From Candidatus Kapaibacterium sp. (GTDB lineage Bacteria > Bacteroidota > Ignavibacteria > Kapaibacteriales > WFXC01): 64,000 bases of DNA. A model generated the notes under the pieces. The model searched no databases and was not told where the DNA came from. It saw only the letters and a program-made list of their open reading frames with translations. Each line of letters opens with the position of its first letter. The stretch's first letter is position 1. A program made the translations under genes and the position numbers. Shown here piece by piece: positions 9,186 to 64,000 of this stretch. The stretch lies in the NCBI GenBank assembly GCA_027082775.1, contig JALWUI010000058.1, positions 7,255 to 71,254 on the forward strand. The letters run 5' to 3'.

Positions 9186-9205
9186 TCTGCGAAAATTGCG
9201 TATTT

Positions 9206-14548: not shown

Positions 14549-14563
14549 TTCTCTTTTTTGTCC

Positions 14564-16226: not shown

Positions 16227-16439
16227 CGGTCAACTCCTCTGGATGTACAAACTGATTACGGCAACAGACTCTTTTGCCCTTTTTCCAGTGGCAAATGCAG
16301 CATTTTGAGAAGGTTCCTGTTGCTCCAGACAATAATCGAACACCGGGTTTTACAGTTCCAAAGTTGCCAATCGAGAACCCTGTTTCAGCGCATATTTCTG
16401 GCAGTGCCCACTTGGACATACAAATTTTTGCCCCTACTA

Positions 16440-16920: not shown

Positions 16921-17023
16921 TCGTAGATAGCAAATCATCCCGACACTTTGCGATCCCCATCCAACTCCAATACAACCCGGAGCTAACCGTAAGAGAGGCA
17001 ACTAAAGAAATGGAGCAGCGACG

Positions 17024-18807: not shown

Positions 18808-18940
18808 CAACATTCCTTCCTTCTGCATTCTGCTTACTGAGGAGCGACATTTCACGAAACCAGCCCGGAAAACGTCTTGCTGCCTTTTCCAGGGGAAGAA
18901 CTGGCTGCAACTGGCAAGAAGGAACAGAAAGGGGACGGAA

Positions 18941-36629: not shown

Positions 36630-37591
36630 TGCTCTACTCTGACCATCGTTTGTAATTCCGGATACTGCTCACTTCGCAGCACGCCTGCTAATCGGTAATA
36701 TTGCATCGCCGTCGGACGCCACTTAATGCGCATCCGTTGCATAAATTCTTCAACGGGAATGCCGGATTCTGCCAGTAAGATTCCTGCGGTGTGCCGAATG
36801 GAAAAGGGCGTTATCAGACGCTTGCGATCCTGCTTGATGCCGCTTTGCCGCAACCGCTCGGAAATTGCCTCGCGAATCCCACGAATCGTCATTCGCTGCC
36901 GCTGCGATCGATTGCTGTAGCTCACAAACATTGGTGAATCCTCGTCCAGCTCTTCGTACTGCCGCCGTTTCTCCAGATACCGTTGCACTGCTTCCACTGC
37001 CGCTGGTGGCACAGGCACAACCTCATCTTTCACCGTTCGCCCCTTCCCCTGCACATAGAGGATCCACTTCCGACCCCGGCGTTGCAAATCCCCAATGTTG
37101 GCATACATTATTTCTCGCTCTGAACAGGCGCATCCCAACATCAACTGAATAATCGCTCGATCCCGCAGTCCGATCTCGGTCGTCTGATCAATGGACTCCA
37201 GCAACTGCTGAATCTCCGATAATTGCAGATACATTCGATGATGGTGTTGCGGACGCCGACCGCCAGCCACTCGAGCCGCCGGATTTTTCTCTAACACTCC
37301 TTCAGCGACCAGAAACTGGCAGAATCGTCGCAGAGCAGTCAGATACGTAGCAACCGTTGCTTCTTTGAGCTTCCGCTGCGTTTTGAGAAATTCTCGATAC
37401 CGTTCAACATCGCGCACCCGGAAGAAAAAGTGGCGGTCCTGGACAAAAAAGTTGACAAAAGCTTTCAGGGAACGCTCATACGTTCCTCGCGTTTCCGGTG
37501 ACCGCTCCTGCAACGTCTCCAGAAACGCCGCTATGTACCGCTTGAGCTCTGTGAGCTTGAGCTTGACCGGTTTAAAAGTATCCTTGATCAT
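36626..37591 (-). CDS. Tyrosine site-specific recombinase, XerC/XerD family
   Basis: N-terminal SAM-like core-binding domain and a C-terminal catalytic domain with R..H.R.Y residues (RHTAGILL ... YY). The start is trimmed to the Met at 37591 (MIKDTFKP). Confidence 0.8.
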   Translation of the reverse strand: MIKDTFKPVKLKLTELKRYIAAFLETLQERSPETRGTYERSLKAFVNFFVQDRHFFFRVRDVERYREFLKTQRKLKEATVATYLTALRRFCQFLVAEGVLEKNPAARVAGGRRPQHHHRMYLQLSEIQQLLESIDQTTEIGLRDRAIIQLMLGCACSEREIMYANIGDLQRRGRKWILYVQGKGRTVKDEVVPVPPAAVEAVQRYLEKRRQYEELDEDSPMFVSYSNRSQRQRMTIRGIREAISERLRQSGIKQDRKRLITPFSIRHTAGILLAESGIPVEEFMQRMRIKWRPTAMQYYRLAGVLRSEQYPELQTMVRVEQ

Positions 37592-37965
37592 TCCTCTGCT
37601 GCCTTGCCCCAAAGATTTTTTAAAATTACAACTTTCTGACGAAATGGGAAGCGAAAACGGTAGGAACGGATGCGGATGCGCAATGTCCCGCAAGGGTACA
37701 ATGTTCCATACCGGTACGGACAATTGCTGCTTTGAACGATTCGTAGAAAGTTGATCGGCGCAAAGAAACTGCCGGGAAACAGGTGTCAGGCTACCTGCCG
37801 ATTTTCCCTGCATTCTGTGTTAGGCAGCGGTGAAAGCATATTGCTGATGCAGAAACAGTACGCTGTCCGGAAGCCATCAATCGCTGTTGCTCGCCATACA
37901 CGATTCCGCATTTCCAGCCGTTCTTTGCTTAAGGAACAAGGAAAAAGTCAAAAAAATTTTTAGAA

Positions 37966-39059: not shown

Positions 39060-39545
39060 TTATCGTTCCCCAGTTTGTGGGGCTCCTGCATAAACACCTG
39101 AGATCACTTTGCCACGAAAGCAGCAACAACAAACACCAGGCTTTCCGGGAGCGCCGGCTTTCGCTGGCAAACACTGGAAACATCCCACTGGGAGCGCCGG
39201 CTTCAGCCGGCATCTTTGCACACTAAGGTGTGCGTTCCCAGTAAACGCACGCTGAAGCAAGCGCCCCCAGTAATCGGGAACGCCAGCGCTAACAAGCACC
39301 GACTGGGAGCGCCGACTTTAGTCGGCAAAGAAAGTGCACCCTAAAGGGTGCGGTCCCAGTGAATGCACGCTGAAGCGTGCGCTCCCCAGTGTAGGGGGCG
39401 CAGCGGCGCTTGCCTATGCGGGCGACCAGCCAGTCGCCCCTACCAGTGCAAAAATTCCCTCTCCCTCCGGGAAAGGGTAAGGGCAATGCACGCTGAAGCG
39501 TGCGCTCCCGGTTGCCAGAAGCGCCAGCTTTCCCGGCAAAGGATG
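39060..39545. repeat. Cluster of REP/BIME-like short palindromic repeat units (cluster 2), same family as 16440..16920
   Basis: Repeated hairpin units (GCCGGCTTCAGCCGGC, GCACGCTGAAGCGTGC, GCACCCTAAAGGGTGC, CCGACTTTAGTCGG) alternate with the core ACTGGGAGCGC / GCGCTCCC(C)AGT. It contains the GTCGCCCCTAC palindrome remnant. Confidence 0.8.
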
Positions 39546-45038: not shown

Positions 45039-46283
45039 GTGAAAATGTCCGGAAAGGACACACTTCCATCGATATTTTCCTTCTGGCACGGTTTTTTCAG
45101 TATAGGAATTTTACGCAAAATAAAGAACACAGATAGTCGTAGCACGAAAAAAGTCTGTAAAACAAAAAGAGGGCATATATGGAACATTTCCGTGGTTGAA
45201 TCTCTTTCTGAGGCAAGTGGGTATGTCGAACAAATCAGCGGAGGAAATCATTTTCTTTTCGTTTCTTGTATCGGAAATCGTTCGTTGTTGTTTAACAACA
45301 AAAAGGGACAGAGTATGCAAAACACTCCTCTTTCTCTGAATGCCCACGACTCTTCCTTCCGCGCAATTATGCAAGCCTTAGAACAGCTCATTCAGCAATT
45401 GCAGTCCAGCCACACGCTTTCTCAGGAAACATTCGAACGTGTTCTCGAAGCACGATATGCTATGTATCGTGCCCTTTGGAAGGTCATCCAAGAGCTGGAA
45501 AGCACAAAACGTTCGGCACAAGACCGCAAGGAGCTCCGTTCTCTGGAGGCATTGCTTCGGAATCTGGTGGAACGGTGGGGTAACAGGGATGGTCTTAATG
45601 AGTCGGTAGTAGATCCTGACCTACGGCGGATAGATCCTGAGGAACGGATAGGAACGGTGCCGAAGGCAAGCTGGGACCTATATGGATACACTCCGGGAGC
45701 CCCTGAGGTATGGACGGAAGAGGCACCGATCGAACGCCCCAGCCTTATGAAAAGCCGCCGGCGGCAAGATCTCAAATCCTCGTCTCATCATATTCAAAAG
45801 CACAAATTACCGCTTTACATTTCCGAAACAAATCGTAAGATTTCTGCTCTTGCTGAAAGCAACTTTGTTACACTCCCACTCAAGCCATTAAACGCAGCGC
45901 TGTATACCCTGATTCTGAGCTATGCTCCGGATCCGGTACGGCTGGGGAAAGAAACGCTTCCAGAACATTGGAACCTGTTCAAGGATCTGTATGCATATTT
46001 TTCTCAGCGCAGTGCTCGCTACAAGAATTTTGTCTTGTCCGTCGAGTCCAGGAAATCACATCCTGCGTGCTGGTTCGACCTGAGCAATAAGATTTACAAA
46101 CTGGTCTCGGAAATCAACGCTGCCATTCGACGCTCTGAGGAACTTCCAGAAAAGATAAAAGAAAAGCTGTACATTCACAAAACGGGGGCATATCGCACCA
46201 AACGCTACTACATACAATTGCCTCCGGAGCAGCATCGTCTGCCAGTAGAGTTAAGAGAAATCCTGAAAAGGTATTTAGGCTAA
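45039..46283 (+). CDS. Hypothetical protein with no recognisable domain. The first ~90 codons are AT-rich, and ATG 45315 (MQNTPLSL) is an alternative start.
   Basis: The long ORF is followed by a clear intrinsic terminator. Local GC is lower than in surrounding genes. No motif is recognised. Confidence 0.55.
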   Translation: MKMSGKDTLPSIFSFWHGFFSIGILRKIKNTDSRSTKKVCKTKRGHIWNISVVESLSEASGYVEQISGGNHFLFVSCIGNRSLLFNNKKGQSMQNTPLSLNAHDSSFRAIMQALEQLIQQLQSSHTLSQETFERVLEARYAMYRALWKVIQELESTKRSAQDRKELRSLEALLRNLVERWGNRDGLNESVVDPDLRRIDPEERIGTVPKASWDLYGYTPGAPEVWTEEAPIERPSLMKSRRRQDLKSSSHHIQKHKLPLYISETNRKISALAESNFVTLPLKPLNAALYTLILSYAPDPVRLGKETLPEHWNLFKDLYAYFSQRSARYKNFVLSVESRKSHPACWFDLSNKIYKLVSEINAAIRRSEELPEKIKEKLYIHKTGAYRTKRYYIQLPPEQHRLPVELREILKRYLG

Positions 46284-48440: not shown

Positions 48441-49937
<1,497 letters not shown>

Positions 49938-49947
49938 CGGATTTCGA

Positions 49948-51027
49948 ATGCAACACCGAATTCAACAACTCCAGCGCTTTATCCGCTCAGAAAAGCTGGG
50001 AGGTTTCCTTGTCAGCTTTGTCCCTCATATCCGCTACCTTACAGGATTTTCGGGTTCCAGCGCCTCGCTGCTGGTACTTCCTCGATCGCTTCACTTCTTC
50101 ACCGACGGTCGCTATGCAACGCAGGTTCAGAATGAAGTGGGACACATTCCCAGACTCAAGATTCACATTACCCGGAATGTCGTCCAGTTTTTCCAGCAAC
50201 ATCGCAAACTGTTCGCATCGGGACGACCGCTGGGCTTTGAATCGTCTTATGTCTCTTACGCTTTCTACGAACACCTCCAGCAGGCGCTTCCGAAGGTTCC
50301 GCTGAAAGGTTACACGAATGTGCTGGAACCCCTGATCGCTGCAAAAACAGAGACGGAACTGCGCTCGATTCGGAAAGCAGCACACATTGCCGAGCGAGTG
50401 TATCAGGACATCCTAACGTTTATCCAGCCCGGTATGCGAGAAATTGAAGTTGCTGCTGAAATTTCCTACCGAGCGCGCCAGTACGGCTCCGAAGGTGATG
50501 CTTTCGATATCATCGTTGCTTCCGGAAAGCGGAGCGCTCTACCGCACGGTCGGGCGACGCGCAAAAAAATCCGATCGGGGGAAATCATCACCTTAGATTT
50601 CGGATGTATTGTCAATGGCTTTTGCTCTGACATCACCCGGACATTTGCGCTGGGCAAAGCGTCGAAGAAAGCGCGTGAAATCTATGCCCTGATCCACACC
50701 GCTTACACAGCAGCAATCGAGCAATTGCAAAGCGGTAAAACAGGAGCCGAAATCGACGCAGTAGCACGCTCGATTATCGACAAAGCAGGCTATGGACCCT
50801 TTTTCAACCACAGCTTAGGACACGGTGTCGGCATCTCTGTCCACGAATATCCAACGCTCTCTCCACAGGGAAAGACTGCCACGATCCCGGAAAATGCGGT
50901 GGTTACCATTGAACCGGGAATTTACTTGCCGAATCAATTCGGCATACGAATCGAAGATGACGTCTGGGTACGTAGTAACACTGCGAAACCTTTTACCCGG
51001 GCTGCTCACGAACTCCTGATTGTGTAA
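49948..51027 (+). CDS. Xaa-Pro aminopeptidase / M24 family metallopeptidase
   Basis: C-terminal pita-bread fold with metal ligands (D..D..H..E..E) and HSLGHGVGISVHE. Confidence 0.85.
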   Translation: MQHRIQQLQRFIRSEKLGGFLVSFVPHIRYLTGFSGSSASLLVLPRSLHFFTDGRYATQVQNEVGHIPRLKIHITRNVVQFFQQHRKLFASGRPLGFESSYVSYAFYEHLQQALPKVPLKGYTNVLEPLIAAKTETELRSIRKAAHIAERVYQDILTFIQPGMREIEVAAEISYRARQYGSEGDAFDIIVASGKRSALPHGRATRKKIRSGEIITLDFGCIVNGFCSDITRTFALGKASKKAREIYALIHTAYTAAIEQLQSGKTGAEIDAVARSIIDKAGYGPFFNHSLGHGVGISVHEYPTLSPQGKTATIPENAVVTIEPGIYLPNQFGIRIEDDVWVRSNTAKPFTRAAHELLIV

Positions 51028-51032
51028 AATCA

Positions 51033-52331
51033 GTGCTTCACGCGTACCCTATGCACAGCAGCGTTGAAACCGTGCTGGTTATTGCTTACTACTTTCCGCC
51101 AATGGGACTCAGCGGCGTTCAGCGCATCACAAAATTTGTCAAGTATCTGCCTCAATTCGGCTGGCGTCCCATTGTGTTAACTCCAGGTGCGGCTTCTTAT
51201 TATGCCTATGATCCCTCGCTGCTGGCAGAAGTACAGCAATTGGAAATTCAGGTGATTCGAACGGACCATCCGCTGGAATCCTCCAGAGTTGCCAAAAGCG
51301 CCTCGTACTACCCTCCCCGACTGCTCCAGCGGCTCTATCATTTTATTGCCAGTTTCTATGCAATCCCTGACACGAAATATCGGTGGAAGAAACGTGCCCT
51401 AAAAGCAGCTCGCTCTTTGCTCCGCCATACGCCGGTCGATGTCATTTTTGCTACCGCTCCTCCTTTTACCAATTTTTTAATCGGTGCGACCCTGGCTGAA
51501 GAGTTCAATCTTCCGCTCGTGTTAGACTACCGGGATCCGTGGGTCGACAACTCCTTCCATATCTACCCCACCCCATACCATCGATTCCGCAATCGCCAAC
51601 TGGAAGAACAGGTACTCCGTCGTGCCAGTGCTGTGATCGTACTTACCCGTTCAATGAAAGAGCATCTGTTGCAGCAATATCGATTTCTGGCACACAGTGA
51701 CATAGCAATCATTCCACACGGCTACGATCCAGAGGATTTTATTCTCTATGGACAGAGTTCCTCGCCGTCGGAAAAGTTTATCCTCACCTACAGTGGCCTT
51801 TTCCAGGACAACCGAACGCCGCGATACCTCCTGGCTGCCGTTGCACATCTATGCAAACAGGAGCCGGCATTGAAAGAGCAATTAGAACTCCGCTTCGTGG
51901 GTTTGCTTCGCAAACGCGATGAGCGACTGATTGACAAATACCGACTTCGGGATCTTGTCCGCATTACGGGCTATGTTCCACACGCTGAGCTGATCCAACA
52001 CCTGGCAGAATCCACGGTCCTCTGGCTGATGCTTCGGGACCAGACCCGAACACCGGAAAAACTCTTTGAATACTTTGGTGCCCGCAAACCCATTTTAGCA
52101 ATGCTTGATCACCCCGCCCTCCAGGAACTCCTGCAACAGTACGAAGCAGCACGGCTGGTACCTCCTACCGATGTGCCAGCAATTGCAACGGCGTTGAAAG
52201 AATTGATCCAGCAATGGCAGAAGCGAGCCCTCCCATCACCCAACGAAGCATTTGTCAAGCAATTCGATCGTCGGCTTCAGACAGAAACCTTAGCAAAGCT
52301 TCTCCGCCACGTTATTCCGATCGACAAATAA
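51033..52331 (+). CDS. Glycosyltransferase, GT-B fold (family 4-like)
   Basis: N-terminal YYFPPMGLSGVQRITKFVKYL motif and a C-terminal E...E-like region (EKLFEYFGARKPILA). Confidence 0.55.
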   Translation: MLHAYPMHSSVETVLVIAYYFPPMGLSGVQRITKFVKYLPQFGWRPIVLTPGAASYYAYDPSLLAEVQQLEIQVIRTDHPLESSRVAKSASYYPPRLLQRLYHFIASFYAIPDTKYRWKKRALKAARSLLRHTPVDVIFATAPPFTNFLIGATLAEEFNLPLVLDYRDPWVDNSFHIYPTPYHRFRNRQLEEQVLRRASAVIVLTRSMKEHLLQQYRFLAHSDIAIIPHGYDPEDFILYGQSSSPSEKFILTYSGLFQDNRTPRYLLAAVAHLCKQEPALKEQLELRFVGLLRKRDERLIDKYRLRDLVRITGYVPHAELIQHLAESTVLWLMLRDQTRTPEKLFEYFGARKPILAMLDHPALQELLQQYEAARLVPPTDVPAIATALKELIQQWQKRALPSPNEAFVKQFDRRLQTETLAKLLRHVIPIDK

Positions 52332-52337
52332 CCCTGA

Positions 52338-52940
52338 TTATTCCGAGCGCTGCCCGTAAAGCTCCAGCCACCGGGCAACATATTTCCCGATGATATCAAA
52401 CTCCAGGTTCACTTCCGATCCCTCTCTGTAGGTGGGAAAAATGGTGTGGTGGAAGGTATGGGGAATAATAGCAACCTTAAATCGATGATCCTGCAAATCG
52501 GCAATAGTTAGACTGACGCCATCCACGGCGATAGAACCGTGTGGAACAAGCATCGCCTGCCACGCTTCAGGAAAACGAATCCAGTACTCTCGCGCCGATT
52601 GCAGGGAAATCGACTCCACAATTCCAATGGTATCGACGTGTCCCTGGACGAAATGTCCGCCCAACCGGTCGGTCACCTGTAATGCCCGCTCCAGATTCAC
52701 CGGTGACCCGACAGTGAGATGCTTCAGCGTTGTTTTTGTCAGGGTTTCCGGAACCACTTCAACGCGCAATCGAGGCGGCTTAATTGCAACAACGGTCAGA
52801 CAGACGCCATTGACCGCAAGCGATTCGCCTTCTTTCAGAGCAGAAGTCAGCGATGGTGCTGCAATATCCAGTTGCCGCGCAGCAGCACGGTGCTCGACTG
52901 CCGCTACCTGTCCAACCGCTTCAACTAATCCCGTAAACAT
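52338..52940 (-). CDS. ribE: Riboflavin synthase (alpha subunit)
   Basis: Begins MFTGLVE. Two homologous lumazine-binding repeats each contain GxSLxVNGxCLTV-type motifs. Confidence 0.85.
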   Translation of the reverse strand: MFTGLVEAVGQVAAVEHRAAARQLDIAAPSLTSALKEGESLAVNGVCLTVVAIKPPRLRVEVVPETLTKTTLKHLTVGSPVNLERALQVTDRLGGHFVQGHVDTIGIVESISLQSAREYWIRFPEAWQAMLVPHGSIAVDGVSLTIADLQDHRFKVAIIPHTFHHTIFPTYREGSEVNLEFDIIGKYVARWLELYGQRSE

Positions 52941-53040
52941 TCCGCATCCTGCTTCTGCTTTGATCGCAAACTTGATGCATCAACCGGACTTTGCACTTGC
53001 TTTGCAATAACAATCCAAAAAGCTACTGCGTACCCAACCC

Positions 53041-53090
53041 AAACAAACAAAAACTGCCGTGCCAGTGGATAAACCACCGGAACACGGCAG
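53041..53090 (-). terminator. Rho-independent terminator downstream of the giant T9SS gene (minus strand)
   Basis: On the minus strand, CTGCCGTG...CACGGCAG stem with inner pairing, followed by TTTTTGTTTGTTT. Confidence 0.5.
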
Positions 53091-53129
53091 CATTGCTTGC
53101 TCGACGCTGAGAAAATGGCCGTTTGCTCT

Positions 53130-56100
53130 TTACTTCACCACATTCACTTTGAGCGTTTTCGTAAACCGTCCACTGCTCATCCGTACATAATACAACCCAC
53201 TGCTCATCTCCGTCGCCGGTACCTCAACCTGATACCACCCCGCCTTCCGATACCCCTTCACAAGATCCCTTACCTTCGTCCCAACCGCATCATACACCCC
53301 AATCTGCACTTCCCCATCAAATCCTATCCCGTACCGTATCACCAACCGCTCCCGCACCGGCTGCTCCCCTACAACCTCCATCCCATAACGCTCCCCGATC
53401 ACTATGTCCCGCGCCTGCCGCAGGCAAAACTCCGATAACGGTACCCGCCCTTTTACCCCACTCGGCTCTACACAAATTGCCCGATCCTCTCCAATCCCGA
53501 TCTCTACAGGAACAATCCCTGCTTCATTGCTATCACTTTCCAGATACACCTCAAACACCAATTGACACACTTCCTCCCCGCCCGGCAACGGCTGCTGCCC
53601 CTGCCCGCTGATCTGCGCTATCCCCGGCTTTAACTCTACTCCCGTCCATTCCCATCCATCTATCAGCGATTCCACTCCCTTCAACCCCAACGCCTTCCCG
53701 TTGTACCGTATCTCCAGCACCACCTGCTCCAACCCCGCTTCCCCGCTCATATCCTCATACCGCACCGGGACCATCACCGTATCCCCCGGCAACACTGGAT
53801 CCTCTACGTCCTCTATCACAAACACCACCGGCACCGAATACCGCTCCCCTCTTACCACCACCGTCGTGTCTCCACTCCCACTTTCCACCAGCACCTCTAC
53901 CTCATACTGCCCCGCTTCGCCCGGCAACAACCGTACGCCTACCTGCCGCTCCCCGCCTGCCGGTACCACAAACTGCCGCGGTCCTACGACCTCAAACTCT
54001 CCAACATCCCCGCCAGCGATCCGCACATCCGTCACATCCACTGCCGCACTCCCCGTGTTCCGCACCACAATCGTCCCTTCTCCGCCATCACATCCCAATA
54101 CCGGTCCAATCACCGTCCCTTCTGCTTCCAGCCCCACCACATACGCACAGCCTCGCACCATTACCCCACTTTCTACCTGCGGCTCTTCCTCCGGTCCCGC
54201 TGCCGCATCACTCACAATCCGTACCCGCACACTGTCTCGGGGATACGTCCGCGCCCGAAACCGTACTGCAAGCTTCAGCGTATCTCCCACATCCAGTGTC
54301 ACTGGAAATTGGGGCCAATTCTCTGCCCAGAACGCCTGCGGATCACTCATTACTCCATTGTCAAATTCTACGTTCCAGATCTGCAATTGCCACACCGCAT
54401 CGGCATTCCAGATCTTCACTACCCCCTGCTCCGCCGATTCCGTCCCCAGCTCCACACATTCAAACTCATACCCTTCCGCTCCAATCTTCGGTAAATACGC
54501 CTGTCCACGTAACTCTCCTTCTACGGCTTCAGCATCAATAAACTCCGCCTGAATCCCTACCTTCAGCGTATCTCCCACTGCCGTCTCCACCTGCGGCTCA
54601 TACTCCACAAACACCAACAGCTTCTGCTTCGGATTCAGTGTTACCCCCTGCGGATCACTCAACGGTGTCCCTTCAAACTCATAGCCAGTAATCCGGAAAT
54701 GCGGCGTTGGCGCTGTGAGATACACCGTATCAATCGTTACCGCATTATTCCCCCCGTTGCCAACTTCCACCTGCCCGCTGTGCACCGTCTGCAACCGCTG
54801 CCACCCCCAGTCGTAACTGGTGATGTACGGTGCCCCCTGAATCCCTTCTCCCTTCCATCGCGAAATGTTGTCATCTCCCGGCGGTGCATCGCACACAAAC
54901 TCCACGTCAATCTGATACTTTTGCACTGCCGTCGGCGTGAAACACGCCCCCTTGAAGTAAATGGTCTCTCCCGGTTGCACTTTGATCGGCAATGTGTAGG
55001 TACTTTGATCCAGCGAAAACGGGGCAGTCACATTCCGAATCTCGGTGATCGTCAGCACCGTGCTGCCCGGATTGCGAATCTCCACGGTCCGCTGAAAATC
55101 CTGGATGTTCTCACTATTACACCGGGTCAGCCCAACCGGCACTGGTCCCGCATCCCAGTCGCCCACCACGATATGCGGCAACACGCCCTGTCCCCGCAAC
55201 TCTGCCAGGGGAAAGTCCACGCACGGTGTTGTTGCAAACAACGAATCAATGTCCCAATCCTCCGGATCGCTCCGCTCATCCTTCGGCGTGTACCGCAATT
55301 CCACCCACAGGGTATCGCCCGCTGCCAGACTTGTCGGTATATCGGGCGTGATCGACACAATTTCAAACTCGTCGGCTATCTTGAGCTTCACCTCCTCCAC
55401 GAGCACCACAGAATCACTTTCGTTGACCACTGCCAGCAGCAACGTCCGGCTCTTGCCGACCCGCACGGTATCGAAAAACACCAGGGTGTCTGACGGCATT
55501 AACTTCGGTGCTTCGTAAAACACGCTGTCATATGCTTCATTGCCCGCCCGGTCGACCACAACGAAATAGGCTTGTGCGTCCTTTGTCTTATCGATCACCT
55601 CCAGGCGGAACCTGGCAGGCGAAATCTTCTCACCGGTGTTTTCCAGCTTTGGCGGATCGACCAGTATCAGTCGATAGTTGAAACTTTTTTCCGGAATCAG
55701 CTCGATCTTGCTGACGCCCTGATCAATCTGACGGGGATTATCGTTGGGTTTGCCGTTGCGTTCCTCCCAGGCGGTAAAGTCATAATCGCCGCAATCTTCC
55801 ACAAATTCCAGCACTGGCTCTAAGGTATCCAGCTCATCGATCTTATTGACGGCGGTGGCAGCGGGCCACCCATAGGATTCCCAGGTGGCGAAGCCATAGA
55901 TATATCCTCCAAAAGGCGTTTTCCCTTCGATGCGGTGCGGTCCGGGATTCACATTCAGCACGGCATAATACACATTGGTTCCCGGAATCCGCTGGCTAAG
56001 AAACGAGGGCACCTTTTGCCACACGTACTGTCCGTCGAGCTTAATCGTTTTGAGTTTTTGCTGCTCTGGATCATCCGGATCGCCAATTGCCAGAATGTTG

Positions 56101-57374
56101 AAATAGTTTTTGGTAAATGCTCGATTGGAAGGCGTCTGGAAAACGGTTCCCTTCGTGTACTGCTCCACAGGGACAACCCAGTAGTAAAAAGGATCAAAAT
56201 TCCGGGCGTTGTCCCAGGCAGCAGAATACGAATACTGACAAACCAGCACTGGCTTATCGGCTGTCCATACGGAAAATCCACGAATCGATTCCAGTTGTCC
56301 CGGTTGCCATGCGTTCATATATTCGAAAAACTCTCCTGCTTTCTTCAGCAGTCCCGACAACTGTCCAATGAGTTCCCCGGATTGCTTGTCGTACCACTTC
56401 ACTTCCCACATCGTATTATCCTGTGAAGCGACAATCCGGAAGAAATCGCCGCGATTTTCGCGCAGTAGTTCTCCCGTGATATATTGTTTTCCCCACGCAT
56501 GCACCGGTGGTGGCATTGTCAGCAGGTGATCCCGGCTGGTAATCCCCGCAGCAATGGGCATAATACTCCGAACGTGGTAAGAAATAATGCCGATTGGCTT
56601 GGTTGCCACGATCTCTGTTCCCGTAATATCAAACAATTGCTCCTGCGATTCGCCAGTGGTCTGGAAGACAAAGGCTTCACCTTCATTCAAAGTGATTGTG
56701 TAGGGCTTGTTCCAGTCTCGTGGAAATTGAATCTGCTGTTTGCCCCCCTGCCAGAAAATATATCCGTTATTCCGACCGCGAAGCTTGACCTGAATGACTG
56801 TCCCATCGTATTTTGCCAGAATCACAAATCCTGAACCGCGGGGGTAATTCCAGCTCAGGTCTTTATAATCGTAATGTCCCACGTGGATATACCGCTTGCC
56901 CCATACTTCTACAGGCAGTGCCAGATATCCTTCGGAGGTATACTGGTGAGCGGACATCACATAGACAGAAATCGGATCCTCAGCAGTAATGTGAATTGCT
57001 TTCAGTGACTTTCCACCTCCTTCATCCCGCATTTCTAAGGATTCATTCAGTGGACCACCCTGCGATGAAATTGTTGTGATCTTCATCGCTTCTACTTTGT
57101 AGGGAATGGGACCAATTCCCAATCCAGGGATATGGAGCATAAATTTCGTGTCGACGGAAGAGGTTACATAGATCTCCAGCAGGCGGAACGCACCATCTCC
57201 ACCGGCTCCACGGTAATTCGTGTTTTCATTCTGTGGAAAGGCAATCCAGAATTCCCGTCCCTGTGTCCCATTATCCAGCAGCCATTGTGGAGAAATCACT
57301 TCGCGCTTCTGTGCAAAGGCACTGAGCCCTCCCAGAAAAAGAATAAAGAGCGTAAAAAACCATCGGCGCATCAT
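53130..57374 (-). CDS. Giant secreted protein (1414 aa) with a T9SS C-terminal sorting domain; N-terminal IgGFc-binding-like region followed by Ig-like repeats
   Basis: Signal peptide MMRRWFFTLFILFLGGLSAFAQ. The N-terminus (GREFWIAFPQNEN...LEIYVTS) resembles the IgGFc-binding-like domain of FCB adhesins. The last ~70 aa (VYDAVGTKV...SGLYYVRMSSGRFTKTLKVNVVK) match the Por/T9SS CTD pattern. Confidence 0.8.
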   Translation of the reverse strand: MMRRWFFTLFILFLGGLSAFAQKREVISPQWLLDNGTQGREFWIAFPQNENTNYRGAGGDGAFRLLEIYVTSSVDTKFMLHIPGLGIGPIPYKVEAMKITTISSQGGPLNESLEMRDEGGGKSLKAIHITAEDPISVYVMSAHQYTSEGYLALPVEVWGKRYIHVGHYDYKDLSWNYPRGSGFVILAKYDGTVIQVKLRGRNNGYIFWQGGKQQIQFPRDWNKPYTITLNEGEAFVFQTTGESQEQLFDITGTEIVATKPIGIISYHVRSIMPIAAGITSRDHLLTMPPPVHAWGKQYITGELLRENRGDFFRIVASQDNTMWEVKWYDKQSGELIGQLSGLLKKAGEFFEYMNAWQPGQLESIRGFSVWTADKPVLVCQYSYSAAWDNARNFDPFYYWVVPVEQYTKGTVFQTPSNRAFTKNYFNILAIGDPDDPEQQKLKTIKLDGQYVWQKVPSFLSQRIPGTNVYYAVLNVNPGPHRIEGKTPFGGYIYGFATWESYGWPAATAVNKIDELDTLEPVLEFVEDCGDYDFTAWEERNGKPNDNPRQIDQGVSKIELIPEKSFNYRLILVDPPKLENTGEKISPARFRLEVIDKTKDAQAYFVVVDRAGNEAYDSVFYEAPKLMPSDTLVFFDTVRVGKSRTLLLAVVNESDSVVLVEEVKLKIADEFEIVSITPDIPTSLAAGDTLWVELRYTPKDERSDPEDWDIDSLFATTPCVDFPLAELRGQGVLPHIVVGDWDAGPVPVGLTRCNSENIQDFQRTVEIRNPGSTVLTITEIRNVTAPFSLDQSTYTLPIKVQPGETIYFKGACFTPTAVQKYQIDVEFVCDAPPGDDNISRWKGEGIQGAPYITSYDWGWQRLQTVHSGQVEVGNGGNNAVTIDTVYLTAPTPHFRITGYEFEGTPLSDPQGVTLNPKQKLLVFVEYEPQVETAVGDTLKVGIQAEFIDAEAVEGELRGQAYLPKIGAEGYEFECVELGTESAEQGVVKIWNADAVWQLQIWNVEFDNGVMSDPQAFWAENWPQFPVTLDVGDTLKLAVRFRARTYPRDSVRVRIVSDAAAGPEEEPQVESGVMVRGCAYVVGLEAEGTVIGPVLGCDGGEGTIVVRNTGSAAVDVTDVRIAGGDVGEFEVVGPRQFVVPAGGERQVGVRLLPGEAGQYEVEVLVESGSGDTTVVVRGERYSVPVVFVIEDVEDPVLPGDTVMVPVRYEDMSGEAGLEQVVLEIRYNGKALGLKGVESLIDGWEWTGVELKPGIAQISGQGQQPLPGGEEVCQLVFEVYLESDSNEAGIVPVEIGIGEDRAICVEPSGVKGRVPLSEFCLRQARDIVIGERYGMEVVGEQPVRERLVIRYGIGFDGEVQIGVYDAVGTKVRDLVKGYRKAGWYQVEVPATEMSSGLYYVRMSSGRFTKTLKVNVVK

Positions 57375-57467
57375 TGTTCGCCTCGTTGTTTATTGGACTT
57401 ACCTATCGGTTTCTCAACCATATCAAAACAAACTTACGAAAAATTCCGAAGATTTCCAATACCTCCG

Positions 57468-60400
57468 CTACCTCACCACCCAGAGGTATCCCTTTGCCAT
57501 CTCCATTGGCGACCGCAGATCCCAGAGGTATACTCCACTGGGCAGCGTGCCCGGTAGTGGGATCGAATGTTGCCCCGCACTGACAGCGATGGTTTGTTGG
57601 GCAGCAAGTACCCCTGTGACACTGTAAACGGAGAGCTGAAGCTCTATCTGTCCTGAGGTATTGATCACAATCGCCGGCTGTGGTGCTGGATGTACAACTC
57701 GAACAACGCTGAATGTGGGAGCAAGCTGAATGGTCCGCAGATCCAGCAAGCAGATTTGCTGAAGTTTGAGCGTCCCATCGATAGTAGTAACGGCAAAACG
57801 ATCAGGAGACTGAATCGTAACATCTGCAATCGTTAAGGGAGAAACGCTTGGATCAGACAACTGGACTATACCCCGCATCGTGATCAGGGTATCCTGATCA
57901 GACCCTGCGAACGATAAGATCGATTGTGCCAGCAGGAGAGAATCCAGGGCGACGATGGTTCGACCCAGATCGGAGGTAAATGGAACGGCAGCATACCCAT
58001 TGCCCAGGAACACCTGCACCGGCACAAAGATGGTTGGCAGAAAGTCCACAGCAAATTCCATTCGCTCCATTTCTGCATCTTTCCCCTCCAGCCGTACCAG
58101 AACGGCGACATCAATCGTATCTCCCGGAACCGCTTCGTACGCTGGAATACTGAGCACCAGCGGATAGACTTTTTCAACTGCCATCACCGCCACTCCTGCG
58201 GTGCTTTGCCGATCACAGCGCGGACCAATCGTTGCGCGTAATGCGGTGCTGACCGTATCAGGAACTGGTGGCGCATAGCGAATCGAAACGGGCAATGAAT
58301 CGGCTGCTGCTACTGTTATCGGGAGTGGGGGATGTGACAGCATCAGCGCTGCTGGCACAGGAGAATCCCACCGAATGTCCGTTACTTCGATCGGGAAATA
58401 AGCGGAGGGATTGACCAGATAGACCGTTGCAGTCGCCTGCTCCTTGCGAGCAAACACGGGACCAATCTGCACATTGGCTGGACGGAAAACCGCTCGTGGG
58501 TCTCGAATCGCCACGCTGAGTTCAACAGTATCCTGTCCCCCACACTGCCGCCAGGCAAGGACAACCGGAATGCGATACATTCCTTCCTCCAATGCTGCTG
58601 GATTCAACTGGACAGCAAAGGACCGTTGCTCATTGACTGACAGGGGGAATGAAAGCGGCGTTACGGAAGCAGCCGCTGCAAAAGCATCAGGAAGGTGCAC
58701 ATCCACCGTATCGGCAAAATTCCCGCTATTGCGTACCTCCCATTGCCACTGCTGCACTGGCTCACACCGGAACAGAGTATCCGGAAATGATGCTGGCGCC
58801 TTCACAATTTCCAGTTCCGGACGATACCATCCAAACGTCACCGGAATCGCAATGGTGTCAACAGAAGCAAAAATACGGAGTGTATCGATCGCAGCCCGGG
58901 GCGTAATCGGCGTCCAGCGAACGACAAAGGCAGCAGCAGCACCCGGATCCAGCACAAAGGGCAATCCACCATCAAATTGCCACTCCAACTCCGGCGCTGT
59001 CACCGCTGCTCCATAAATCGTCACACTCTGGCTGCCAGTATTGGTAATCCACACCGTATCCTCCACGGGCGTGGCAGAACAAACAAATTCTGGTAATGTT
59101 AGCATACCCGGCTGCACTGTAAGCAATTTGTTCTTTGCTGAAATATCGACATCGACACAAATGCTCCACGGACATTCAGCATCTCCCGAAGCGCATATTT
59201 TACCAACGTATACCGTATCGCTGGACGGAAACAGTTTGAGCTGTACAGTAAGTTCCTCGCCAGACTGCAATGTTTGCGGCAGCGCTGGTGCAACGATCAT
59301 CCAATCAGATCGCTGGGGTGTCAGGAGGATCGTATCGATCACCGCAGCGGCGGTCCCTATGGATCGGAATCGGACAGGGACAACCGTAGTATCGCCGGGA
59401 CTAATCGTCATCTGGATCTGCGCTGGTGTAGCAGCTACGTCCGTTGTGATCGCCTGTCCGTGCAACACAATGGCAAAGCGGAGATTGCACGGTTGTACCA
59501 GCACAATCAACGTATCCGTAAATTCACCTACCACCGTTGGAGCAAATCGCAGTTGCAGGTTGATTTGCTGATTCGGGGAAAGCTTCACTGGAGGATTTGC
59601 CGGGCTGATCAGTTGAAAAGCGGTTGCCGGCATAATGAAATCCAGCACTGATGATTGCGGCGAAAGATTCTGGATCGAGATAGCGGTATCTTTTGGGGTG
59701 TTGATGCAAACACTCCCGAAATCGACCTGCGTTGCGCTCAGTTCAAGCTCAGGTTGGAAACTGGAAATCTGGACAGCAACGATCTTTGGATTTGCATTTC
59801 CCCGTACCTGTGTCCGATCATTGTTAGCAAGCGCTATGCTGAAGTTGTAAGTCTGGTTCTGCTGCACCCGGATAACAAGCTGGAGGGTATCTGCTGCTTT
59901 TGGCGGGATAGCAACTGGAAGTGTTTGCCCTGAACGCCAGAACAGCGCCTGCACGATTGCAGTATCTGACCCCTGGAGTGTCACAGCAGAAATCCTCAAC
60001 GTGTCGTTTCCACCATTACGGACAGGAACGGCTACCGTATCAACATCCCGGCAGGCAGCAATGTGCTGCACTCGCTGAGGAGCAACAATGATAGGCGATA
60101 CTCCATACGCTCGAACGACGATCACCGTATCAAGCGAACATTGATTCACAAAGAGTCGGAATCGGGCTTCATACCATCCGGTGTCTGGCGGATTAATCTG
60201 GAACAGCAGATCCGTTCCCGGCTCCGTAATTTCTAAAGGCAACGGCGAAGCAATGCGGATGTGCGAGCTACCGGATATGCGCTTCACGGACTGCAAAGAA
60301 AACGCAGAAGTATCCACGGGCTGCAACGTAACCCCACCAGTGTTATTTTGTCCACAGAATGCAGGATTGATGATCAAGGTGTCGCGGCTGACCTGGTAAT

Positions 60401-61679
60401 GGGTTGGCGGGAGCGCATAGCCTTCGATGTAGATAAGGAAGGATCGTCCCACCGTTGGCGTTGTGAAGCGCAACACAGCCGTATGTTTGCCAGCTCGTTT
60501 CGGTTCAAAGACAATGCGGGCATCCATCGAGTCACAGCCAGCAACGGTAAGCGTTGGGCGGAGATTGGTGGTAAAAGCAGAGGAACCTATCAATTCGGTA
60601 TACGCAGGATAGTCTTTGCGCCAGTAATTTTTAATCCAGATCTTCTCAACCTGTTTGTCGCCTATGCAGACCGTATCAAACTGCACGGTATCCGGGTGGG
60701 GTTGGACGGGGGGCCAAACCATTCGGTATAGCCCGCCAGCACCGGCGATGAACGCTGTGGTATCGTTGACAAACCAGATGTCGTCCAGATTGATTCCTTC
60801 CACCCCACAGTTGAGCAATTCCCAGGCATACCCTCCATTTGTCGTGCGGATTGCTGTTCCACTATCGCCCACGCCCCAGCCAACCCGCGGCGTCAGCAAG
60901 AAGGAACCGAACATTCGCTTGCCCGTAGAGTATGCCACCCAGGTGTTTCCATTATCCAGTGAAAATCCCATTTCGCCGCCGGGACCATCTCCATTGCAGG
61001 TATTGCCTGCTGAAGGAAGCAGAAAAGAATTGCCATTCTTCGAGATCTCCTCCTGCCAGTGTTTCGGACCCGTGATGGCAAAAATGCTCCAGGTGCGTCC
61101 TCCATTGGTGGTCCGCCAGATACGACCACTGCTGATGGCATAGCCCAATCCGTTTGCTGAATAGAGAATCACATCGCTCAATCCTGACCCCGGCTCGTGG
61201 TATTGCTTCAGGGTCCAGGTATTCCCTCCATCAGTGGTACGATAAAAATTCTGTGGCGTTCCGCATCCCCCACCAACCAGCACTCCCACGGAATCATTGA
61301 CGAAGTAACATCCCCATAGCTCGCCTGTAGGATTCGGCGTAATGTCCGTCCAGGTACGTCCCCCATCGGTCGTGCGATAAATCCGATCGGGATTCGTGCC
61401 CGAACACCATCCAACAAGTGGGGAAACAAAATGAATGCTTTCCATATGGTTTGCGGGAGCGGGCAATTGCGTTCCCTTCCAGGTTTTTCCACCATCGGTG
61501 GTGCGCACCACATAACCATTGAAACCACACGCCCATCCATATTGCGGATCAGAGGGAAGGAAGAAGACATCCAGAAAATATCCGTAACGATAGGGCGCCG
61601 GCAGTTCGATCCGCTGCCATTGTGCCACTGCTGGAAGTACAAGGACCACCAACATTCCGTAAAGCCACCGCCGCATCAC
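57468..61679 (-). CDS. Giant secreted protein (1403 aa) with N-terminal BNR/Asp-box beta-propeller, many Ig-like repeats, and a T9SS C-terminal sorting domain
   Basis: Signal peptide. Six S/T-x-D-G-G-x-T-W Asp-box repeats lie in the first ~330 aa (TTDGGKTW, TTDGGRTW, TTDGGNTW, TTNGGRTW, LDNGNTW, TTNGGYAW). The C-terminus (LSVYSVTGVL...SGVYLWDLRS...KGYLWVVR) fits the T9SS CTD. Confidence 0.8.
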   Translation of the reverse strand: MMRRWLYGMLVVLVLPAVAQWQRIELPAPYRYGYFLDVFFLPSDPQYGWACGFNGYVVRTTDGGKTWKGTQLPAPANHMESIHFVSPLVGWCSGTNPDRIYRTTDGGRTWTDITPNPTGELWGCYFVNDSVGVLVGGGCGTPQNFYRTTDGGNTWTLKQYHEPGSGLSDVILYSANGLGYAISSGRIWRTTNGGRTWSIFAITGPKHWQEEISKNGNSFLLPSAGNTCNGDGPGGEMGFSLDNGNTWVAYSTGKRMFGSFLLTPRVGWGVGDSGTAIRTTNGGYAWELLNCGVEGINLDDIWFVNDTTAFIAGAGGLYRMVWPPVQPHPDTVQFDTVCIGDKQVEKIWIKNYWRKDYPAYTELIGSSAFTTNLRPTLTVAGCDSMDARIVFEPKRAGKHTAVLRFTTPTVGRSFLIYIEGYALPPTHYQVSRDTLIINPAFCGQNNTGGVTLQPVDTSAFSLQSVKRISGSSHIRIASPLPLEITEPGTDLLFQINPPDTGWYEARFRLFVNQCSLDTVIVVRAYGVSPIIVAPQRVQHIAACRDVDTVAVPVRNGGNDTLRISAVTLQGSDTAIVQALFWRSGQTLPVAIPPKAADTLQLVIRVQQNQTYNFSIALANNDRTQVRGNANPKIVAVQISSFQPELELSATQVDFGSVCINTPKDTAISIQNLSPQSSVLDFIMPATAFQLISPANPPVKLSPNQQINLQLRFAPTVVGEFTDTLIVLVQPCNLRFAIVLHGQAITTDVAATPAQIQMTISPGDTTVVPVRFRSIGTAAAVIDTILLTPQRSDWMIVAPALPQTLQSGEELTVQLKLFPSSDTVYVGKICASGDAECPWSICVDVDISAKNKLLTVQPGMLTLPEFVCSATPVEDTVWITNTGSQSVTIYGAAVTAPELEWQFDGGLPFVLDPGAAAAFVVRWTPITPRAAIDTLRIFASVDTIAIPVTFGWYRPELEIVKAPASFPDTLFRCEPVQQWQWEVRNSGNFADTVDVHLPDAFAAAASVTPLSFPLSVNEQRSFAVQLNPAALEEGMYRIPVVLAWRQCGGQDTVELSVAIRDPRAVFRPANVQIGPVFARKEQATATVYLVNPSAYFPIEVTDIRWDSPVPAALMLSHPPLPITVAAADSLPVSIRYAPPVPDTVSTALRATIGPRCDRQSTAGVAVMAVEKVYPLVLSIPAYEAVPGDTIDVAVLVRLEGKDAEMERMEFAVDFLPTIFVPVQVFLGNGYAAVPFTSDLGRTIVALDSLLLAQSILSFAGSDQDTLITMRGIVQLSDPSVSPLTIADVTIQSPDRFAVTTIDGTLKLQQICLLDLRTIQLAPTFSVVRVVHPAPQPAIVINTSGQIELQLSVYSVTGVLAAQQTIAVSAGQHSIPLPGTLPSGVYLWDLRSPMEMAKGYLWVVR

Positions 61680-61878
61680 TAATGCCTCCGTGGATTGTTT
61701 TTACTTCAGGTAAAGTTACAAAATCCCGGCGAAAGAAAGGGCAACCGAATAACCATTTTCGCCCATCCTGCCCAACCAGTGTTTCCAGAAGAGCGCAGAC
61801 ACCAGTCAAACCTGACGCGGCTTTTTACCCTGTTCCCAAATCCGGCTGCACAATAGGGAATGCAGGGCAACGTTTCCA

Positions 61879-63864
61879 TTGCTGCAAATAGCAAGGATCA
61901 TAGACATCAAGACAAAAATGCAAGAGCAATTTCCGCTCCTTTCCCGAATTCACGATCCCAATGATCTTCGCAAACTCCCCATCGATCAACTGCCACAACT
62001 GGCAACCGAAGTTCGACAATACCTTATCGACACGATCACCAAAGTTGGTGGACACTTCGGCTCAGGACTGGGAGTGGTGGAGTTGACCATCGCTCTTCAC
62101 TACGTATTCCAGACCCCGAAAGACAAGCTGGTGTGGGACACTGGACACCAGGGGTATCCGCACAAGATCCTGACCGGACGAAAGCATCTACTGCCGACGA
62201 TTCGGAAAAAAGGAGGCATCTCTGGCTTTCTGAAACGGAGCGAAAGCATTTACGACGTTTTTGGTGCCGGACACGCCTCAACCAGCATTTCGGCTGCGCT
62301 GGGTATTGCCACTGCCCGGGATTTAATGAAAAAAGATTTTCACGTTGTCGCCATCATTGGCGACGGGGCAATGACGGGCGGATTGGCGTATGAAGCAATG
62401 AACAACTGTGGGCTACAGCAGCGGAAATTGCTGGTCGTTCTGAATGACAATCAAATGTCGATAGCTCCCAATGTCTGGGCGTTAGCCAACTACTTCACAG
62501 AGTTAGACACCACTCGCATCGTTTTCAAGCTACGGCAAAATATCCAGCGGTTGAGCGAACAACTGGAGCCATTCGGTGATCGAATTCTGAAGCTGCTCCA
62601 GCGGATCGAAGGTGGCGTAAAATCGATCATCACTCCCGGAATGCTCTTCGAAGCCTTAGGCTTCAAGTACTACGGTCCGATCAATGGTCACCATTTGCCC
62701 CGGCTGATCAAGATTTTGCGCTTTATCCGGGACACCTACGATCGCCCGGTGCTACTCCACGTTACAACGCAAAAGGGAAAAGGGTACGAAGCGGCGGAGA
62801 AACATCCGGAGGCATTACACGCTATCGGAAAGTCAGCCCCACCGTCGCAGGATAAAATTGAAATCGGCTCTTCCCACCGCAAAGGGAAAAAATATCAGGA
62901 TGTTTTCGCCGAGACGCTGATTGAATTGATGCGGCACAATGAGAAAATCGTCGCCATTACTGCTGCTATGCCGAGTGGAACTGGTCTGGATAAAGTTGCG
63001 GCGCACTTCCCTGATCGGGTTTTTGATGTTGGCATTGCTGAAGCGCACGCTGTCACGTATGCCGCTGGCTTAGCAACGGAAGGGATGATTCCTGTCTGTG
63101 CGATCTACTCCTCCTTCCTCCAGCGTGCTTTCGACCAGATCATCCACGACTGTGCCCTGCAAAATCTGCACGTTGTCTTTGCAATGGATCGTGCAGGTGT
63201 GGTTGGTGCAGATGGTCCTACGCACCACGGCGTTTTTGACCTGGCTGCACTTCGAGTGATTCCGAATATGGTGTTGATGGCACCCAAAGATGAGCGCGAG
63301 CTCCGGAATATGCTGTATACGGCAATTGTCGAACATCGCGGTGGCCCCATTGCCTTGCGATATCCCCGAGGACAGGGACCGGGCAGCTCGTGGGATCCGG
63401 GTGATTTTGAGTCTATTCCCATTGGAAGGGCAGAAATTCTGCGAACTGGTGGGGATGTCGCGCTGCTGGCAATTGGCAAACCGGTAGCAGAAGCCCTGCA
63501 AGCAGCAACGATCCTGGAGCAGCACGATATTTCGGCAGCGGTGATCAATGCGCGTTTTGCCAAACCGCTGGATACTGCTCTGTTAGATCAATTGTTCGAC
63601 ACCTATCCATTGATTGTTACCATTGAAGATGGGCAAAAAATTGGTGGATTTGGAAGCGGCGTTCTGGAATATTTTCACGCCCATCCCCGGTCTACCGCTC
63701 CCCATATCGTGGTTCACGGTATCGAAGACCGTTTTGTGAGCCACGGTACCCAGGAAGAACTGTACGAAGAATTGCAGCTTAATGCTGCCGGGATTGCTCG
63801 GCTGGTCCTGGAATCGCTGCATCTGGGCACTCAAATTCCCAGCTCTTCGTCTCTGGATTCTTGA
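61879..63864 (+). CDS. dxs: 1-deoxy-D-xylulose-5-phosphate synthase
   Basis: TPP-binding GDG...N motif (IIGDGAMTGGLAYEAMNN) and transketolase-like domains. ATG 61918 (MQEQFPLL) aligns better with Dxs N-termini than 61879 does. Confidence 0.9.
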   Translation: MLQIARIIDIKTKMQEQFPLLSRIHDPNDLRKLPIDQLPQLATEVRQYLIDTITKVGGHFGSGLGVVELTIALHYVFQTPKDKLVWDTGHQGYPHKILTGRKHLLPTIRKKGGISGFLKRSESIYDVFGAGHASTSISAALGIATARDLMKKDFHVVAIIGDGAMTGGLAYEAMNNCGLQQRKLLVVLNDNQMSIAPNVWALANYFTELDTTRIVFKLRQNIQRLSEQLEPFGDRILKLLQRIEGGVKSIITPGMLFEALGFKYYGPINGHHLPRLIKILRFIRDTYDRPVLLHVTTQKGKGYEAAEKHPEALHAIGKSAPPSQDKIEIGSSHRKGKKYQDVFAETLIELMRHNEKIVAITAAMPSGTGLDKVAAHFPDRVFDVGIAEAHAVTYAAGLATEGMIPVCAIYSSFLQRAFDQIIHDCALQNLHVVFAMDRAGVVGADGPTHHGVFDLAALRVIPNMVLMAPKDERELRNMLYTAIVEHRGGPIALRYPRGQGPGSSWDPGDFESIPIGRAEILRTGGDVALLAIGKPVAEALQAATILEQHDISAAVINARFAKPLDTALLDQLFDTYPLIVTIEDGQKIGGFGSGVLEYFHAHPRSTAPHIVVHGIEDRFVSHGTQEELYEELQLNAAGIARLVLESLHLGTQIPSSSSLDS

Positions 63865-63869
63865 CTATT

Positions 63870-63942
63870 GACCCCGTAGCTCAGCAGGTAGAGCAACGGC
63901 CTTTTAAGCCGTGGGTCGCAGGTTCGATCCCTGCCGGGGTCA
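63870..63942 (+). tRNA. tRNA-Lys (anticodon TTT)
   Basis: Cloverleaf readable by eye: acceptor GACCCCG/CGGGGTC, D-arm GCTCAGCAGGTAGAGC, anticodon stem ACGGC/GCCGT with loop CTTTTAA, T-arm GCAGGTTCGATCCCTGC, discriminator A. No encoded CCA. A T-tract follows. Confidence 0.85.
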
Positions 63943-64000
63943 CTTTTTATTCCTGCCGATCAACCGGATAGCGGTATGGCGAGCGATCTGCAAGTACTCC

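Follow-up and report, generated by a model that had tools for sequence, protein, structure and literature searches.

In a 64,000-nucleotide stretch of Candidatus Kapaibacterium sp. DNA (contig JALWUI010000058.1 of GenBank assembly GCA_027082775.1, positions 7,255 to 71,254 of the forward strand; hereafter the window), two consecutive minus-strand genes, which we call A (53130..57374) and B (57468..61679), encode proteins of about 1,400 residues. We consider it rather probable that A and B are two independent ligand-binding fibrillar proteins that are exported through a type IX secretion system (T9SS) and displayed on the cell surface, a reading that draws on sequence comparison, structure models and analogy with characterised cargo. 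Each protein combines an N-terminal head, a stalk of tandem immunoglobulin (Ig)-like domains, a cohesin-like module and a C-terminal domain (CTD) that matches the T9SS type A family at the level of its homologues. All features of A and B described below lie on the minus strand.

Genes A and B Are under Purifying Selection

The original prediction placed two open reading frames (ORFs) of 1414 and 1403 aa at these coordinates, and an ORF check found both of them there. In alignments with close relatives, substitutions accumulated at the third codon position of the sense frames, with 45, 30 and 269 changes at positions one, two and three for A against L009 and 35, 23 and 149 for B; a third-position excess in A was also seen against L010. 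This concentration of substitutions shows that both genes are real and evolve under purifying selection. Gene A encodes a 1414-aa protein with an IgGFc_binding head, choice-of-anchor D repeats and a T9SS-type CTD; no record of the exact protein exists in public assemblies. Gene B encodes a protein of 1403 aa when read from its GTG codon, with a Ycf48-like propeller, choice-of-anchor D repeats and a T9SS-type CTD. An ATG at 61676 directly follows the GTG and would give a product of 1402 aa, and a GGAGG motif lies ~8 nt upstream. Because an independent metagenome assembly contains exactly this 1402-aa product, and the closest B homologue begins there too, B probably starts at ATG 61676.

Signal Peptides and Heads

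Both proteins had been predicted to carry signal peptides, and inspection of their N-termini agrees with this: each starts with a positively charged n-region (RR), continues with a hydrophobic core and ends at an AxA↓Q site, and both look like Sec signal peptides. In A (57312..57374, aa 1-21) cleavage is predicted at AFA↓Q, the AlphaFold2 (AF2) model of the head contains a helix at residues 2-19, and the family consensus conserves "AQ" at the cleavage point. In B (61620..61679, aa 1-20) the predicted site is AVA↓Q, and "AQxW" is conserved across the family. The conserved AxA↓Q of both proteins agrees with the Q-rule, the occurrence of Gln after signal peptidase cleavage, which was described for Bacteroidetes with a high value also for Ignavibacterium album (PMC5837995).

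The head of A (55845..57311, aa 22 to ~510) is an all-beta IgGFc_binding domain and the best-conserved part of the A family. The Pfam model PF17517 matches aa 149-494 with an E value of 4.8e-49 and 167.7 bits (gathering threshold 25.6), covering profile positions 2-297 of 297, which confirms the IgGFc-binding-like module that had been proposed for this gene. The head resembles only small binding-type beta-sandwiches, namely TM1070/ASRT, carbohydrate-binding modules and GOLD domains. It is followed by a linker beta-domain (55515..55844, aa ~511-620) with a putative boundary, recognised in the family alignment by a conserved DTLxP...CGDY motif; the AF2 model places beta strands at aa 521-536 with lower confidence.

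The head of B (60720..61619, aa 21-320) is a Ycf48-like BNR/Asp-box beta-propeller. PF14870 (PSII_BNR) matches aa 18-317 with an E value of 3e-15 and 56.7 bits (gathering threshold 27; profile positions 6-298 of 303), and Ycf48 chains of the PDB are matched nearly full length, with an E value of 6.6e-15 when the single sequence is used and of 2.4e-20 with the profile. Six Asp-boxes at residues 60, 103, 148, 190, 240 and 279 recur with a spacing of ~43 residues, and the last of them is followed by one more segment of blade length that has no Asp-box. Ycf48 propellers are seven-bladed. The end-to-end alignment with Ycf48, together with this seventh segment, suggests that the propeller of B probably has seven blades; the original description as six-bladed was right about the six Asp-boxes and probably wrong about the number of blades. 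In contrast to its agreement with Ycf48/HCF136, the photosystem II assembly factor, in alignment and Asp-box spacing, B reaches only 64.7 bits against the cut-off of 326 of the NCBIfam equivalog NF010237, and is thus Ycf48-like rather than a Ycf48 orthologue. Its propeller, unlike Ycf48, would form the tip of a 1,400-aa secreted protein, and we know of no oxygenic phototroph among the sequenced members of its lineage.

Stalks and a Cohesin-like Module

Behind the heads lie tandem ASH/HYDIN-type Ig-like (choice-of-anchor D) domains, which we counted with profiles made from individual repeats in the family alignments. The long run of Ig-like or beta-sandwich repeats noted in the original prediction resolves into five ASH domains in A (53820..55508, aa ~623-1185) and eight in B (58167..60713, aa ~323-1171). 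Both stalks pass the cut-off of 45 bits of choice_anch_D (NF012200), A with 64.0 bits and B with 94.4 bits in four stretches, and A is also matched by the Pfam families ASH and HYDIN_VesB. The family profiles strongly match the HYDIN ASH (MSP/PapD-like) repeats of solved ciliary structures, with E values of 3e-17 for A and 2.6e-65, in nine stretches, for B. The name "choice-of-anchor D" covers the repeat only, however, and not the two ~1,400-aa architectures.

Directly before the CTD, both proteins contain a cohesin-like module that had been overlooked. For the module of B (57765..58166, aa ~1172-1305), the family profile matches the cohesin chains 1g1k and 2vn5 over the whole cohesin (E 6e-7). 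An AlphaFold model of the last 244 residues of B has a predicted local distance difference test (pLDDT) score of 89.7, and Foldseek aligned it to many cohesins with a probability of 1.00 and target template-modelling (TM) scores of 0.70-0.74. The corresponding module of A (53400..53807, aa ~1190-1325) was located by alignment of the A-family columns to the B-family cohesin columns (hhalign probability 95.9%, E 5.5e-9, 130 columns); searches of Pfam and PDB gave no direct cohesin match for A. As modelled, the module of B has a cohesin fold, and profile comparison indicates that the module of A is homologous to it. The module of B shares fold and profile similarity with cohesins of cellulosomal scaffoldins and with non-cellulosomal cohesins such as those of Archaeoglobus (2xdh) and C. 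perfringens (2jh2/2w1n). The modules of both proteins differ from these in that PF00963 matches neither A nor B at E<=1, with a precomputed match in only a few homologues, and in that a single copy stands immediately before a T9SS CTD, instead of the tandem copies of scaffoldins. No dockerin turned up in general scans of the window ORFs.

C-terminal Domains and Type IX Secretion

The CTDs of A (53133..53369, aa ~1336-1414) and B (57471..57713, aa ~1323-1403) are assigned to type A on the basis of TIGR04183 matches of isolated tails and of family tails and, for B, of the structure model and of homology to the CTD of A. At E<=0.01, TIGR04183 matched all 51 A-family tails (best E 1e-10) and 41 of the 51 B-family tails (best E 4.5e-8). 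Many of these tails also match the tails of T9SS-dependent M36/M6 protease equivalogs, and the CTD profiles of the two families are homologous to each other (hhalign 98.2%, E 6e-14). The model of the B tail shows seven beta strands over the last ~80 residues, mostly with pLDDT >90, while the Foldseek list was dominated by cohesins and brought up no solved CTD; weak matches of the B profile to the CTD chains 8glk_D and 8glj_D fall at the correct positions. At the family level, as judged from these profile matches, the CTD assignment is solid. The original claim that both proteins end in T9SS sorting domains therefore stands for the families (92 of the 102 tails), whereas the window copies themselves score just below threshold. 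Like other type A CTD cargo, A and B combine a Sec-type signal peptide and a predicted Gln after cleavage with a probable beta-sandwich of ~75-80 aa at the extreme C-terminus, and they come from an FCB-group (Fibrobacteres, Chlorobi and Bacteroidetes) lineage; their passengers, in contrast, are unlike those of any characterised cargo.

Cargo of the TIGR04183 type abounds in Melioribacter and throughout the FCB superphylum (PMC3534657, PMC4737851), and T9SS components in Ignavibacteriae and Chlorobi have been suggested by BLAST (PMC5837995). For the present lineage, the literature gives plausibility at the lineage level only; we found nothing specific on T9SS in Kapabacteria or Ignavibacteria, or on choice-of-anchor D. 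In a 5.5-Mb relative (L007), the A homologue has as its neighbours a further CTD protein with Ig repeats (970 aa), an outer-membrane protein of the LptD_2 family (927 aa) and a smaller CTD protein with an IgGFc_binding domain (824 aa), forming a local cluster of T9SS-type cargo (6893-9805, 14431-17214 and 17442-19916).

A Model for Export and Display

We propose that Sec would export A and B across the inner membrane and that signal peptidase I would cut after AxA, leaving an N-terminal Gln. The type A CTD would then be recognised and the proteins translocated over the outer membrane, after which, if they behave like characterised type A CTD cargo, they would lose the CTD and be either attached to the cell surface or released. 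In the anchored form, the part nearest the membrane would be the cohesin-like module, and the five (A) or eight (B) ASH/Ig-like domains may make up a rigid stalk with a length of tens of nanometres. The head at the tip, which in B is a Ycf48-like propeller and in A an IgGFc_binding domain of several sandwiches, would bind a ligand, with a glycan or another surface as the most plausible target.

In its overall plan, with the head distal, 5-8 Ig-like domains in tandem as the stalk and the anchoring signal proximal, the architecture of A and B matches that of fibrillar adhesins. In contrast to many adhesins, the number of stalk domains in A and B is fixed across each family, and the families behave as conserved core rather than accessory genes; binding by A and B is something we infer. 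An adhesin, S-layer or gliding role had been suggested for the two proteins. The head-stalk-anchor arrangement fits adhesion or ligand binding, whereas nothing specific speaks for an S-layer or gliding function: among the Pfam, NCBIfam and PDB matches there was no similarity to S-layer proteins or to gliding-motility adhesins of the SprB/RemA type.

Several observations weigh against T9SS-dependent display of ligand-binding proteins. With cut-offs of 23 bits for TIGR04183 and 27 bits for PF18962, the full-length proteins reach 17.7 (A) and 18.2 bits (B) with TIGR04183, and their isolated tails (last 100 residues) narrowly miss the cut-off at 21.7 and 22.6 bits; PF18962 gives 15.7 bits for A and no match for B. 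T9SS machinery (SprA, PorV, PorU, GldKLMN and others) was not found with Pfam or NCBIfam among the 40 window ORFs scanned, which hold housekeeping functions only (the shikimate pathway, lipid A synthesis, PolA, PEPCK, RF-1, IMPDH, ATP synthase beta, dxs and ribE); a 64-kb stretch is too short to speak for the genome as a whole. In relatives, PD40+OmpA proteins beside A' (L010, 7303-9954) or near B (L008, 1369-3372) resemble PorE, but their 171-232 bits compare with an equivalog cut-off of 600, and the CHU_0125 OmpA family, which is not part of the T9SS, matches equally well. As to the heads, the family alignment of A contains many invariant acidic and polar residues (Asp, Glu, Arg), which could mark a catalytic rather than a binding site, and we found no literature on bacterial PF17517 proteins.

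The first of these points raise the alternative that the CTDs are generic Ig-like sandwiches rather than functional T9SS signals, and that the proteins are periplasmic or leave the cell by another route, the more so as T9SS outside Bacteroidetes proper is held to be uncertain by some authors (PMC5837995). We regard this alternative as extremely improbable. The domain sits at the extreme C-terminus in every family member, most of the family tails match TIGR04183 and many also the protease equivalog tails, and neighbouring proteins in relatives carry clear CTDs, for example with 35.4 bits in L007; moreover, record titles place the lineage within Bacteroidota under GTDB naming.

Alternatively, the heads may be unrecognised enzymes, glycoside hydrolases or lyases, which would make A and B stalked, secreted polymer degraders comparable with the T9SS carbohydrate-active enzymes of Melioribacter. 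Such enzymes are common among the T9SS cargo of Ignavibacteria (PMC3534657). The propeller of B gives weak profile matches to xyloglucanases of glycoside hydrolase family 74 (GH74) and to BNR glycosidases, its score for the glycosylhydrolase family F510_1955 (28.5 bits, cut-off 175) lies below threshold, and the invariant Asp, Glu and Arg residues of the A head would fit an active site. Against this, no enzymatic family passed its threshold in A or B in either Pfam or NCBIfam, in line with the earlier statement that neither protein has a recognisable enzyme domain. The best propeller match is the non-enzymatic Ycf48, the head of A is similar to binding-type sandwiches only, and polysaccharide-utilisation genes are absent from the adjacent positions. 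An enzymatic role for the heads is therefore unlikely in our view, and ligand binding at the tip of a surface-displayed stalk remains the reading that we prefer.

Two Widespread Families without Conserved Linkage

The A family comprises 257 full-length homologues of ~1,400 aa (median 1421 aa) and the B family at least 633 (median 1405 aa), and in both families lengths are nearly constant down to ~27-35% identity. At least 210 species-representative genomes, every one a metagenome-assembled genome (MAG), encode relatives of B. Hosts are labelled Kapabacteria/Kapaibacterium, Ignavibacteria, Chlorobi-group or Bacteroidota, and the homologues of both families are all from lineages of the FCB group, where TIGR04183 cargo is common. 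Their records carry the names "choice-of-anchor D domain-containing protein" or "YCF48-related protein". Some carrier MAGs are titled "uncultured Hyphomicrobiales", "Chloroflexota" or "Patescibacteria group" (L016-L018, L027, L033, L069, L070, L085 and others), which are probably taxonomic mislabels or bin contamination in public records.

The very constant lengths, and the occurrence of B as a single stand-alone gene in housekeeping contexts across so many genomes, could also be expected of a structural surface coat, an S-layer-like or fibril layer core to Kapabacteria and Ignavibacteria, in which the cohesin-like modules mediate lateral or anchoring contacts between proteins. The membrane-proximal cohesin fold conserved in both proteins and their many conserved cysteines would suit such a coat. 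The Pfam, NCBIfam and PDB matches revealed no likeness to known S-layer proteins, however, general scans identified no dockerin partner, and the head-plus-stalk layout is more typical of fibrillar adhesins; we consider a coat rather unlikely and continue to favour two ligand-binding fibrillar proteins.

We then compared the surroundings of A and B across species. An A-head-like sequence lies within 10 kb of B at 3 of the 80 species-level B loci, with ~25% identity, and no neighbour of B is conserved across these loci, the commonest being present at 17 of 80 and consisting of housekeeping genes. In L006 and L008 B stands by itself, and L007 and L010 have A but no B. In one Kapaibacterium genome (L004), A lies 6 kb from B, with five genes in between and in the opposite order. 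A and B are directly adjacent in one clade, made up of the window, L001, L009 and L091. The 93-bp spacer between B and A (57375..57467) contains a terminator-like hairpin with a T-run (57447-57467) and, at 57429-57436, the sequence TAAGTTTG, a candidate promoter element. The Bacteroidetes -7 promoter consensus is TAnnTTTG, and TAAGTTTG matches it, as a consensus match only. Given the unconserved adjacency and the variable contexts, A and B are independent genes that are adjacent by chance in this clade; their side-by-side position is a local accident and not a conserved two-gene system.

The original description as a tandem pair implies a functional unit, and a dedicated two-component system, in which A and B are co-transcribed and work jointly, for instance as two subunits of a single surface structure, would account for several features: the genes share a strand and are separated by 93 bp in the window and its close relatives; they share the ASH stalk, the cohesin-like module, the CTD layout and near-equal lengths; and in the genome with the intervening genes they are still within 6 kb of each other. 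The rarity and low identity of A-like heads near B, the genomes with only one of the two genes, the hairpin and candidate promoter between them and the rearranged context of A among close relatives all argue against it. We judge joint function highly doubtful, and A and B do not form a functional pair.

Gene A Is a Mosaic with a Compositional Skew

Gene A combines sequence shared with different relatives. Its product is ~96% identical to protein P0001 up to aa ~1200 and ~30-50% identical thereafter; with P0002 the identity is ~92% from aa ~500 onward and 30-68% in the head, and P0003 is ~90% identical in the head only. The head of A is consequently like that of P0001 and P0003, the stalk like P0001 and P0002, and the tail like P0002 only. 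At the DNA level, window positions 53776-64000 match L009 at 93.8% and positions 49704-56733 match L010 at 88%. Gene order follows the same two relatives, the upstream synteny dxs-B-A being that of L009 and the downstream synteny A-ribE-GT4-M24 that of L010. Breakpoints in A fall near 53776 and 55043-56733, and the gene sits where synteny of the L009 type gives way to the L010-type context.

In three independent assemblies with gene B, the sequence breaks off within A, at codons 632, 685 and 777; one of these, L091, shows 100% identity to the window as far as it extends. Because all three end inside the gene, the join in the window is without independent confirmation. From sequence comparison, the 3' part of A points to strain-level heterogeneity or recombination; the gene is a mosaic that arose either by recombination or in assembly, and the join itself could be an assembly chimera.

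The 3' segment of A (53133..54677, codons ~900-1414) is also anomalous in composition, with far more G than C on its coding strand, an extreme excess that extends to synonymous sites. Its third-position frequencies are 0.55 for G and 0.07 for C, compared with ~0.27-0.30 and ~0.23-0.28 in the other window genes, and V, G and E together make up 39% of its residues against a family median of 22%. The skew sets in sharply at ~codon 900 and is common to P0001 and P0002 only. The long antisense ORFs inside A and B had been regarded as compositional by-products, and we concur, since C-poor sense third positions remove antisense stop codons. Three candidate causes were rejected. Deamination of C to T would raise third-position T, which is low rather than high. 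Selection for an antisense ORF would need only specific T/C-before-TA/CA contexts to remove antisense stops, so that a global loss of C is not required. Copies from a template or cassette, as in diversity-generating retroelements (DGRs), were dismissed as a source of either mosaicism or skew, no repeat in the window involving A or B and no DGR-like template being present there.

Mosaic and skew together may reflect strain-level surface variation. One may go further and speculate that the two families are length-constrained core surface proteins of Kapabacteria and Ignavibacteria whose membrane-proximal cohesin-like modules dock into a T9SS-dependent scaffold, an instance of cohesin assembly outside cellulosomes, and that the outer modules of A are recombined between strains under pressure from phages or predators, the G-over-C skew marking a linked mutational or selective process. 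As a whole, we rate this scenario as quite improbable.

Surroundings of A and B in the Window

On one side, A and B are flanked by ribE, a GT4 glycosyltransferase and an M24 peptidase, and on the other by dxs and a tRNA-Lys. Two genes past dxs, the relatives L001 (2341-5781) and L009 (1-1647) encode a third large protein of the BNR/Sortilin type (~1146-1151 aa), at a position that corresponds to a point beyond the right end of the window; in this clade three giant secreted proteins are thus loosely grouped around dxs.

Elsewhere in the window, a tyrosine recombinase/integrase (36626-37813, minus strand; Phage_integrase with a SAM-like N-terminal domain) lies beside a 634-aa Amidase_3 protein and could be XerC/D-like or a mobile-element remnant. 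Two intergenic clusters of short hairpin-forming repeats (16463-16915 and 39142-39528), ~22.4 kb apart and with both orientations present, consist of units of ~29 nt such as TGCCGACGAAAGTCGGCGCTCCC; they look like palindromic elements of the repetitive extragenic palindromic (REP) or bacterial interspersed mosaic element (BIME) type. A 414-aa ORF (45039-46283, plus strand) has no Pfam or NCBIfam match, and a 322-aa ORF (15258-16226, minus strand) has only a weak Pfam match to DUF1036 and none in NCBIfam.

Implications

Surface proteins that are large, multidomain and T9SS-tagged are a common feature of the FCB group, and GenBank already lists homologues of A and B under a generic name. The present analysis provides a full domain map for two widespread, uncharacterised families of ~1,400 aa from Kapabacteria, Ignavibacteria and the Chlorobi group, and adds to it the cassette of a cohesin-like module and a CTD that A and B share at their C-termini. 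If surface proteomics or cryo-electron tomography of a cultivable relative, Ignavibacterium or Melioribacter for example, were to show that these proteins form major surface fibrils, they would become useful cell-envelope markers for a poorly studied lineage.

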